Source: Escherichia coli (GTDB lineage: Bacteria; Pseudomonadota; Gammaproteobacteria; Enterobacterales; Enterobacteriaceae). From it: DNA of 64,000 bases. Positions 49,346 through 49,803 of the stretch are shown piece by piece. The notes under the pieces were generated by a model. The model was given only the letters and a program-made list of their open reading frames with translations. It was not told the origin of the DNA and did not search any database. Position 1 is the first letter of the stretch, and each line of letters starts with the position of its first letter. The position numbers and the translations under genes are program-made. The stretch lies in NCBI RefSeq assembly GCF_003018115.1, contig NZ_CP027457.1. The stretch is one strand, 5' to 3'.

Positions 49346-49523
49346 AATCGACGAAGATCGTCCAGGAGCGCCGTTTTTCAAGGGTTGGATAGATGATTCG
49401 TTTACCATGTCGACGAACTTCGACGAATTTCGCCGATAAAAAGTGTCCCATACATGCCCCATTGATGCCCCATAAACAACATCAGGAATTGACACTGGTT
49501 ATCCATACAGATAAAAATAACAC

Positions 49524-49539
49524 CTGTACATAACCACAG
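49524..49539. promoter_or_regulatory. Candidate LexA box upstream of the dinI-like gene
   Basis: CTGTACATAACCACAG fits CTGT-N8-ACAG; sits after a TTGACA-17-ATAAAA promoter-like pair. Confidence 0.55.
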
Positions 49540-49554
49540 TTACAGGAGGGTGTT

Positions 49555-49803
49555 ATGCGAATTGAGATCTGTATCGCTAAAGAAAAAATCAGCAAAATGC
49601 CAAAAGGTTCTGTTCCTGCCCTACAGCAAGAAATGCTGCGACAAATCAGTAAGCGTTATGACGATGTAGAAGTGATCGTTAAATCTGCCAGCAATGATGG
49701 ACTCACTATTTTAAGAGCCGTGGATAAAGAATCCGCGCAAGAGTTTGTACAAGAAACGCTTCAAAATGTCTGGGAAACAGCGGACGACTGGTTTATTCAC
49801 TGA
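49555..49803 (+). CDS. DinI-family protein (prophage moron)
   Basis: 82-aa [12 protein letters not shown]...[12 protein letters not shown] resembles DinI (MRIEVTIAK...LQETWESADDWF). Confidence 0.75.

Follow-up and report, generated by a model that had tools for sequence, protein, structure and literature searches.

What is a gene for a DinI-like protein, preceded by LexA-box-like sequence, doing at the very end of a prophage, and could its product change the way RecA signals DNA damage to the prophages of the cell? We explored this question in a stretch of 64,000 nucleotides of Escherichia coli DNA, which is referred to as the window throughout. The first-pass annotation had put forward the idea that a prophage-encoded DinI under SOS control damps RecA co-protease activity and thereby modulates induction, and this idea is plausible. 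Our analysis makes it likely that the locus is a LexA-repressed, self-contained prophage moron that encodes a DinI paralogue and modulates RecA filament signaling. The features on which the argument is built are collected in Table 1.

Table 1. Coordinates in the window of the DinI-like module, its surroundings and the two chromosomal SOS operators
Feature	Position	Strand	Basis or remark
yebG SOS operator	28408-28427	gene 28100-28390 (-)	heterology index, rank 1
ruvAB SOS operator	43865-43884	ruvA 43204-43815, ruvB 42185-43195 (-)	heterology index, rank 3
aspS	46589-48361	-	host chromosome, E. coli
yecD	48638-49237	+	host chromosome, E. coli
yecE, 5' fragment (first 32 codons)	49234-49329	+	ORF list; host gene cut by prophage insertion
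att core (11 bp, inside yecE), prophage/host junction	49319-49329		shared with int-side junction of L085
Candidate integrase arm-type sites, two copies	49454-49462 and 49465-49473	+	repeat count
Sigma-70-like promoter: -35 TTGACA 49489-49494, -10 TAAAAA/AAAAAT 49512-49518	49489-49518	+	promoter scan and conservation
Predicted LexA box 1, core CTGG-N8-ACAG 49495-49510	49493-49512		heterology index; comparison of loci
Predicted LexA box 2, core 49524-49539	49522-49541		heterology index; pattern match
Shine-Dalgarno sequence AGGAGG, 5 nt 5' of ATG	49544-49549	+	read from sequence
DinI-like protein gene, 82 aa, ATG start	49555-49803	+	ORF list; profile, structure and PHROG matches
ykgJ-like gene relic, last 33 codons, no start codon	49808-49909	+	RefSeq pseudogene
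Intrinsic-terminator-like hairpin and T-run	50038-50070	+	scan; folding
DUF4376 tail-fibre-assembly (tfa)-like gene	50073-50795	-	domain match

The dinI-like gene lies 225 bp inside a lambdoid prophage that is inserted in yecE. It has the att core to one side and the tfa-like gene to the other and lies on the strand opposite to the tail genes, and its position at the prophage end beyond tfa had been recognized correctly in the first-pass annotation. The equivalent yecE stretch is described in RefSeq as 'incomplete; missing C-terminus', and in strain 2012C-4431 the remaining part of yecE (DUF72) adjoins int at the opposite end of the prophage. The prophage of this O178:H19 strain (locus L085), which is lambdoid, Stx1a-converting and ~48 kb long, is near-identical to the one examined here, as window positions 49330-64000 are 97-99.7% identical to its tail end. 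The longest sequence common to the window junction and the int-side junction of L085 is TTAACTGCGTG. Since it recurs at both junctions, the phage DNA starts at position 49330; phage records match the window from 49345 onward.

Between the att core and the promoter of the dinI-like gene, the sequence ATGCCCCAT is found as a tandem pair, ~125-145 bp from the core and 15 bp 5' of the -35 element. These are the only two copies in all of the 64-kb window. The 49.6-kb prophage locus L085 contains three copies, each within ~150 bp of the att cores and all in one orientation; the third (1521-1529) sits beside the integrase-side core with its orientation unchanged. These copies are likely to be arm-type binding sites of the integrase, in which case the dinI promoter abuts the attP arm. 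The phage-end sequence beginning with ACGCAACATTTTTAAAAATCG is also present in VT1-Sakai, which is inserted in yehV. Being common to yecE and yehV prophages, it points to one conserved phage arm that is combined with differing integration sites.

The reading frame of the module encodes a DinI-family protein, in agreement with what the first-pass annotation had claimed. Its product matched Pfam PF06183 (DinI) over profile positions 1-63 of 63 (E=1.6e-17, 64 bits against a cutoff of 24.2) and PHROG 189, 'RecA filament binding protein DinI' (E=1.2e-26). It also matched the DinI structures 1GHH and 7YWA in the PDB over its full length (E=4.9e-11), and its identity to E. coli DinI is 41%. The AlphaFold2 model (pLDDT 77.7) has its elements in beta-alpha-beta-beta-alpha order (E2-8, H19-31, E39-45, E50-54 and H59-79), and its significant fold matches in the PDB were to DinI alone, with TM values of 0.75-0.78 for 7YWA and 1GHH and of 0.78 for 1GHH. 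A score above the profile threshold, a single domain fold of ~80 residues and the RecA-contact residues described below place the protein in the DinI-like family (PF06183 / PHROG 189), and RefSeq names it 'DinI-like family protein' (WP_001217534.1). Against the NCBIfam DinI equivalog NF007893, however, it scored 63.2 bits, far under the cutoff of 111. The protein is a paralogue and not the dinI orthologue, and an identical activity is not guaranteed.

The residues by which DinI contacts RecA are known from cryo-EM of the RecA-DinI complex, in which L13, L21, W71, W77 and F78 hold the RecA L2 loop and E24, E69 and D76 make up an acidic patch (PMC9926225). The first five align to M15, L23, W73, W79 and F80 of the window protein and the other three to E26, N71 and D78. 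Seven of the eight contacts are thus kept, six by identical residues and one by the conservative change from L13 to M15, while the change from E69 to N71 loses the charge at one of the three acidic positions. The dN/dS values of 0.13-0.25 against six homologues (the dS of a seventh was not computable) indicate that the dinI-like gene has been maintained by selection.

For the promoter, the first-pass annotation had proposed a TTGACA-17-ATAAAA pair. The TTGACA half of this proposal stands, whereas ATAAAA is one base out of register; it agrees poorly with the consensus and would imply a spacer of 16 nt. A 17-nt spacer leads to TAAAAA (49512-49517) as the -10 element, and the scan tool favors an 18-nt spacer with AAAAAT. 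As the promoter match by itself is at the level of chance (2 found and 2.1 expected), it is conservation across loci, and not the motif match alone, that supports the promoter. In 11 representative divergent loci, the -35 element, box 1, the -10 element and box 2 are all conserved and the sequence 5' of the -35 element is unrelated. Folding of the 5' untranslated region was no more stable than that of shuffled sequence (z = +0.58), with no sign of a leader structure.

The CTGT-N8-ACAG sequence that had been singled out as a LexA box, CTGTACATAACCACAG, is the core of box 2 (ACCTGTACATAACCACAGTT), and it held up well. This box lies between the -10 element and the Shine-Dalgarno sequence, over the likely start of transcription. 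A second box had been missed and was uncovered by comparing 80 related phage loci; the core of this box 1 (CACTGGTTATCCATACAGAT), CTGGTTATCCATACAG, fills the spacer between the -35 and -10 elements exactly. The pattern CTGT-N8-ACAG occurs three times in the window, where 0.57 occurrences are expected, and the genuine yebG operator accounts for one of the other two. The looser CTG-N10-CAG occurs 28 times.

A LexA heterology index (HI) was scored on all 63,981 20-mers of the window, using a matrix of our own that was compiled from E. coli LexA operators and not taken from a database. The yebG operator (28408) ranked first, box 2 (49522) second, the ruvAB operator (43865) third and box 1 (49493) fourth. 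The yebG and ruvAB operators served as internal positive controls, and a matrix from which yebG and ruvA had been omitted gave the same ranking. The HI of box 2 (~7.3-7.8) is inside the range of known operators, which is 0.5-9.6 in this matrix, and that of box 1 (~10-11), which has a CTGG half-site, is weaker and borderline. Shuffled sequence had 0.3 LexA-like sites of this kind per window, and none of 40 shuffles contained a close pair; the two boxes of the window are spaced 29 bp apart exactly over the dinI-like promoter. In most related phage loci box 1 reads CTGT-N8-ACAG, with degenerate forms in BP-4795 and L017, and box 2 is kept, with one exception, in the related loci for which there is upstream sequence. 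With CTG-N10-CAG over the promoter and HI values in the known range (borderline for box 1), the gene has the operator features of the LexA (SOS) regulon, and we predict that both boxes are LexA operators of the dinI-like promoter.

The chromosomal dinI gene provides a natural comparison. Chromosomal E. coli DinI (1GHH, 7YWA) and the window protein share their length class, their fold and an acidic C-terminal helix with W-x5-WF, and chromosomal dinI is SOS-regulated, as the window gene would be from its operator sequence. The window gene differs in that it is prophage-borne and multi-copy and has two operator-like boxes, whereas chromosomal dinI presumably has a single operator. In a promoter variant found in L022-L024, the core of box 1 is CTGTATAAATAACCAG, identical to what we take to be the operator core of chromosomal E. 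coli dinI. This identity hints at a shared origin of the chromosomal and phage dinI promoters.

Downstream of the dinI-like gene there is little left to be expressed. The ykgJ-like relic begins four bases past the stop codon and is annotated in RefSeq as a pseudogene, 'YkgJ family cysteine cluster protein, missing N-terminus'. Its identity to the C-terminus of a longer, apparently frameshifted ykgJ-like reading frame in the related locus L055 is 67%. Relative to L055, the window has a deletion of ~340 bp that starts right after the dinI stop codon, which explains the loss of the rest of the ykgJ-like gene. The terminator consists of an 8-bp stem, in which 5 pairs are GC, and then CTTTTTGTCT (-16.2 kcal/mol, z = -2.0), and it abuts the stop codon (50073) of the convergent tfa-like gene. 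Since the gene is followed only by a relic and then by a terminator, the unit is a monocistronic moron. Its designation as a moron had been made in the first-pass annotation and is borne out by its own promoter and terminator, its location between the tfa-like gene and att, and a deviant GC content of 41-43% across the module compared with 50-57% in the flanks.

Other candidates in and around the module were set aside. A 162-aa open reading frame at 49848-50336 (+) is spurious, as it runs partly antisense to the tfa-like gene, crosses the terminator and is absent from the RefSeq annotation. A 10-bp direct repeat, ACTTCCGGAA (49894-49903 and 49956-49965, 62 bp apart), which holds the palindrome TTCCGGAA and has its copies in the ykgJ relic and the region 3' of it, is not conserved in L055 and is probably due to chance. 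An Rfam scan of positions 49000-51000 found nothing in the module; its single hit, RAGATH-33, lay outside the module and was below threshold (20 bits against 120). The small RNA EcOnc27 (PMC12711010) is unrelated and sits 3' of stx2.

The same module stands beside att in VT1-Sakai (Sp15) of E. coli O157:H7 Sakai (AP000400.1), where the phage end next to att is ~91-92% identical to the window at the DNA level. The -35 and -10 elements are identical there, and a single base is changed in the SOS box (C to T). The gene H0001 (BAB19557.1) encodes an 82-aa DinI homologue with 67% protein identity to the window protein. The record already carries 'putative promoter of H0001 and H0002' as an annotation, together with 'putative SOS box / LexA protein' and 'DNA-damage-inducible protein I'. 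It differs from the window in that the prophage is inserted in yehV and not in yecE, in that one SOS box is marked instead of two, and in that an annotated 66-aa ykgJ-like ORF (H0002) is kept where the window retains the 33-codon relic.

The gene is also widespread. It is present in 802 of the 5,426 E. coli genomes that are complete, the median number of copies being 2 and the highest 6, and it is annotated as dinI in dozens of records of Stx1a, Stx2a, Stx2c and Stx2d phages as well as in BP-4795, JLK-2012, YYZ-2008, mEp460 and others. The dinI-like module is thus an ordinary one, common in Stx phages and already in the public record. What is added here is small: a second operator-like box, the decay of the ykgJ-like gene, which leaves the unit monocistronic, the att core and the candidate arm sites. 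Papers on the response of EHEC to ciprofloxacin and on lineage arrays report chromosomal dinI as the only dinI. We found no experimental test of the E. coli prophage paralogue in the literature that was searched, the coverage of which leaves out most subscription journals.

From these observations we infer LexA binding, SOS induction, RecA binding and an effect on prophage induction, its direction included, along the following lines. In an uninduced lysogen, LexA dimers would occupy both operators, box 1 in the promoter spacer and box 2 at the transcription start, and the promoter would be shut. DNA damage would give rise to RecA filaments, LexA would cleave itself and the promoter would fire. 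The 82-aa protein would then accumulate from a monocistronic transcript of ~550 nt, running from ~49525 to the terminator at ~50070, and would occupy the RecA filament groove by means of its hydrophobic pocket and acidic C-terminal helix, as E. coli DinI does. The groove bound by DinI is also used by LexA, UmuD and lambda CI (PMC9926225). By adding to the cellular pool of DinI, the prophage protein would alter the duration and the strength of the RecA filament signal, and with several copies in many EHEC strains the total dose could reach an inhibitory range and slow the cleavage of CI or UmuD. The closest sequenced full prophage encodes a CI-like repressor whose C-terminus is an S24 autopeptidase; given a cleavable CI of this type, a competitor for the RecA groove could in principle affect induction. 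Several genes with Rha, BRO-N or antirepressor domains are present in this prophage on top of the S24-type CI (L085 8694-11126 and 23198-25104, not part of the window), and its induction circuitry may be more complex than that of lambda.

The same gene under the same SOS control could instead act in the opposite direction, with a protein that at the levels reached stabilizes RecA filaments, as near-stoichiometric DinI does, prolongs or strengthens the SOS signal and favors prophage induction; we hold this to be possible, though unlikely. DinI is said to stabilize RecA filaments at modest levels and to inhibit when in excess, so that the net effect may go either way, and the inhibition of co-protease activity that reportedly follows overexpression of DinI speaks against a purely stabilizing protein. 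On the other side, DinI makes RecA filaments longer and more stable and 'assists' in forming them (Gao 2023, PMC9926225), and the window protein has kept the residues that serve this purpose. Because DinI shares its groove with LexA, UmuD and CI, however, an excess of it should compete, and a high dosage is favored by the number of copies per genome and by the strong Shine-Dalgarno sequence. We continue to favor a moron whose paralogue modulates RecA filament signaling.

An alternative that we regard as improbable is that the module is the remnant of a LexA-controlled operon whose key product came from a downstream gene, with DinI as a passenger that has little or no role in induction. The Gifsy-1, -2 and -3 prophages of Salmonella resemble the window in having a DinI-family gene first behind a LexA box, and the Gifsy dinI homologue accumulates after mitomycin C (Lemire et al. 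2011, PMC3121763). The Gifsy operon matters through an antirepressor encoded 3' of dinI, which triggers induction, and non-polar deletions of the dinI homologues in both Gifsy-1 and Gifsy-3, the one related system that has been tested, did not significantly alter induction (PMC3121763). A passenger role would also agree with the annotation of the VT1-Sakai promoter as serving H0001 and H0002, and with the removal from the window of the sequence 3' of dinI, of which the 33-codon relic was left. The Gifsy modules nevertheless differ from the one described here. Their DinI homologues are ~39-40% identical to the window protein, a single LexA box overlaps the -10 element, and dinI is sited after the replication genes and not at att. 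The Gifsy-2 operon consists of dinI, a 73-aa antirepressor gene and the DUF1367 gene irsA (STM1020), the latter two of which have no counterpart in the window, and the window therefore does not hold an operon of the dinI-ant-irsA type.

The region 3' of dinI likewise argues against a lost antirepressor. No small antirepressor ORF of the Gifsy type was found there in the window, and the 80 related loci have no conserved small ORF in this region, the content of which is extremely variable among them. Where E. coli relatives do have a downstream gene, it is ykgJ-like and neither a Gifsy-type antirepressor nor a DUF1367 irsA. The dinI-like gene, in contrast, is under purifying selection and is kept with its promoter even where its neighbors were lost, and the closest prophage, with its cleavable S24-type CI, needs no antirepressor. 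Nor does the window protein resemble Tum of coliphage 186, the product of another LexA-controlled phage gene, beyond a DinI-like C-terminal half. Tum has 146 residues with its antirepressor activity in the N-terminal half, whereas the DinI domain spans all 82 residues of the window protein.

That the LexA-like sequences are chance matches or stay unbound, with the gene constitutive or silent, is very improbable: for all that the sigma-70 match does not exceed chance, CTG-N10-CAG is common and box 1 is weak, two of the four LexA-like sites that score best in the 64 kb fall together over this promoter, no shuffle produced such a pair, the boxes are conserved across divergent loci, and a homologous LexA-controlled arrangement has been demonstrated experimentally in Gifsy.

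PsiB of conjugative plasmids is a functional analogue, as it is a RecA modulator that comes from a mobile element and tunes the response to DNA damage (mentioned in PMC1431545). It is unrelated to DinI in fold and sequence, and its expression accompanies the entry of the plasmid and does not depend on a LexA-repressed moron. That a copy of DinI limits the induction of Stx phages was suggested in 2021 for Stx2a phages (PMC8456039). A more far-reaching proposal, which we consider doubtful, is that the two-operator promoter makes these genes late and tightly repressed within the SOS response and that their combined dosage, at up to six copies per EHEC genome, acts as a timer or brake across prophages on RecA-stimulated CI cleavage, setting the threshold for Stx-phage induction and toxin release. 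If the paralogue does modulate the RecA co-protease, copy number could help to explain differences between strains in Stx-phage induction and toxin output after antibiotics.

Further genes were noted in the vicinity of such modules. In BP-4795 (L084 652-2993), the genes that come after the dinI module, on its strand, encode a 'putative avirulence protein' and the type III effector NleA, which places effector cargo directly 3' of the LexA-boxed promoter. In the tail region of the window, the tail-fibre gene (50966-52678, -) contains a long collagen-like Gly-X-Y repeat region in which GC content rises to 73%. A gene for a Hok/Gef-family toxin at ~52839-52979 (-), a position transferred from the RefSeq annotation of L001 (6640-6780), lies between the tail-fibre gene and the tail-tip (J-like) gene and is another moron-like insertion in this region.
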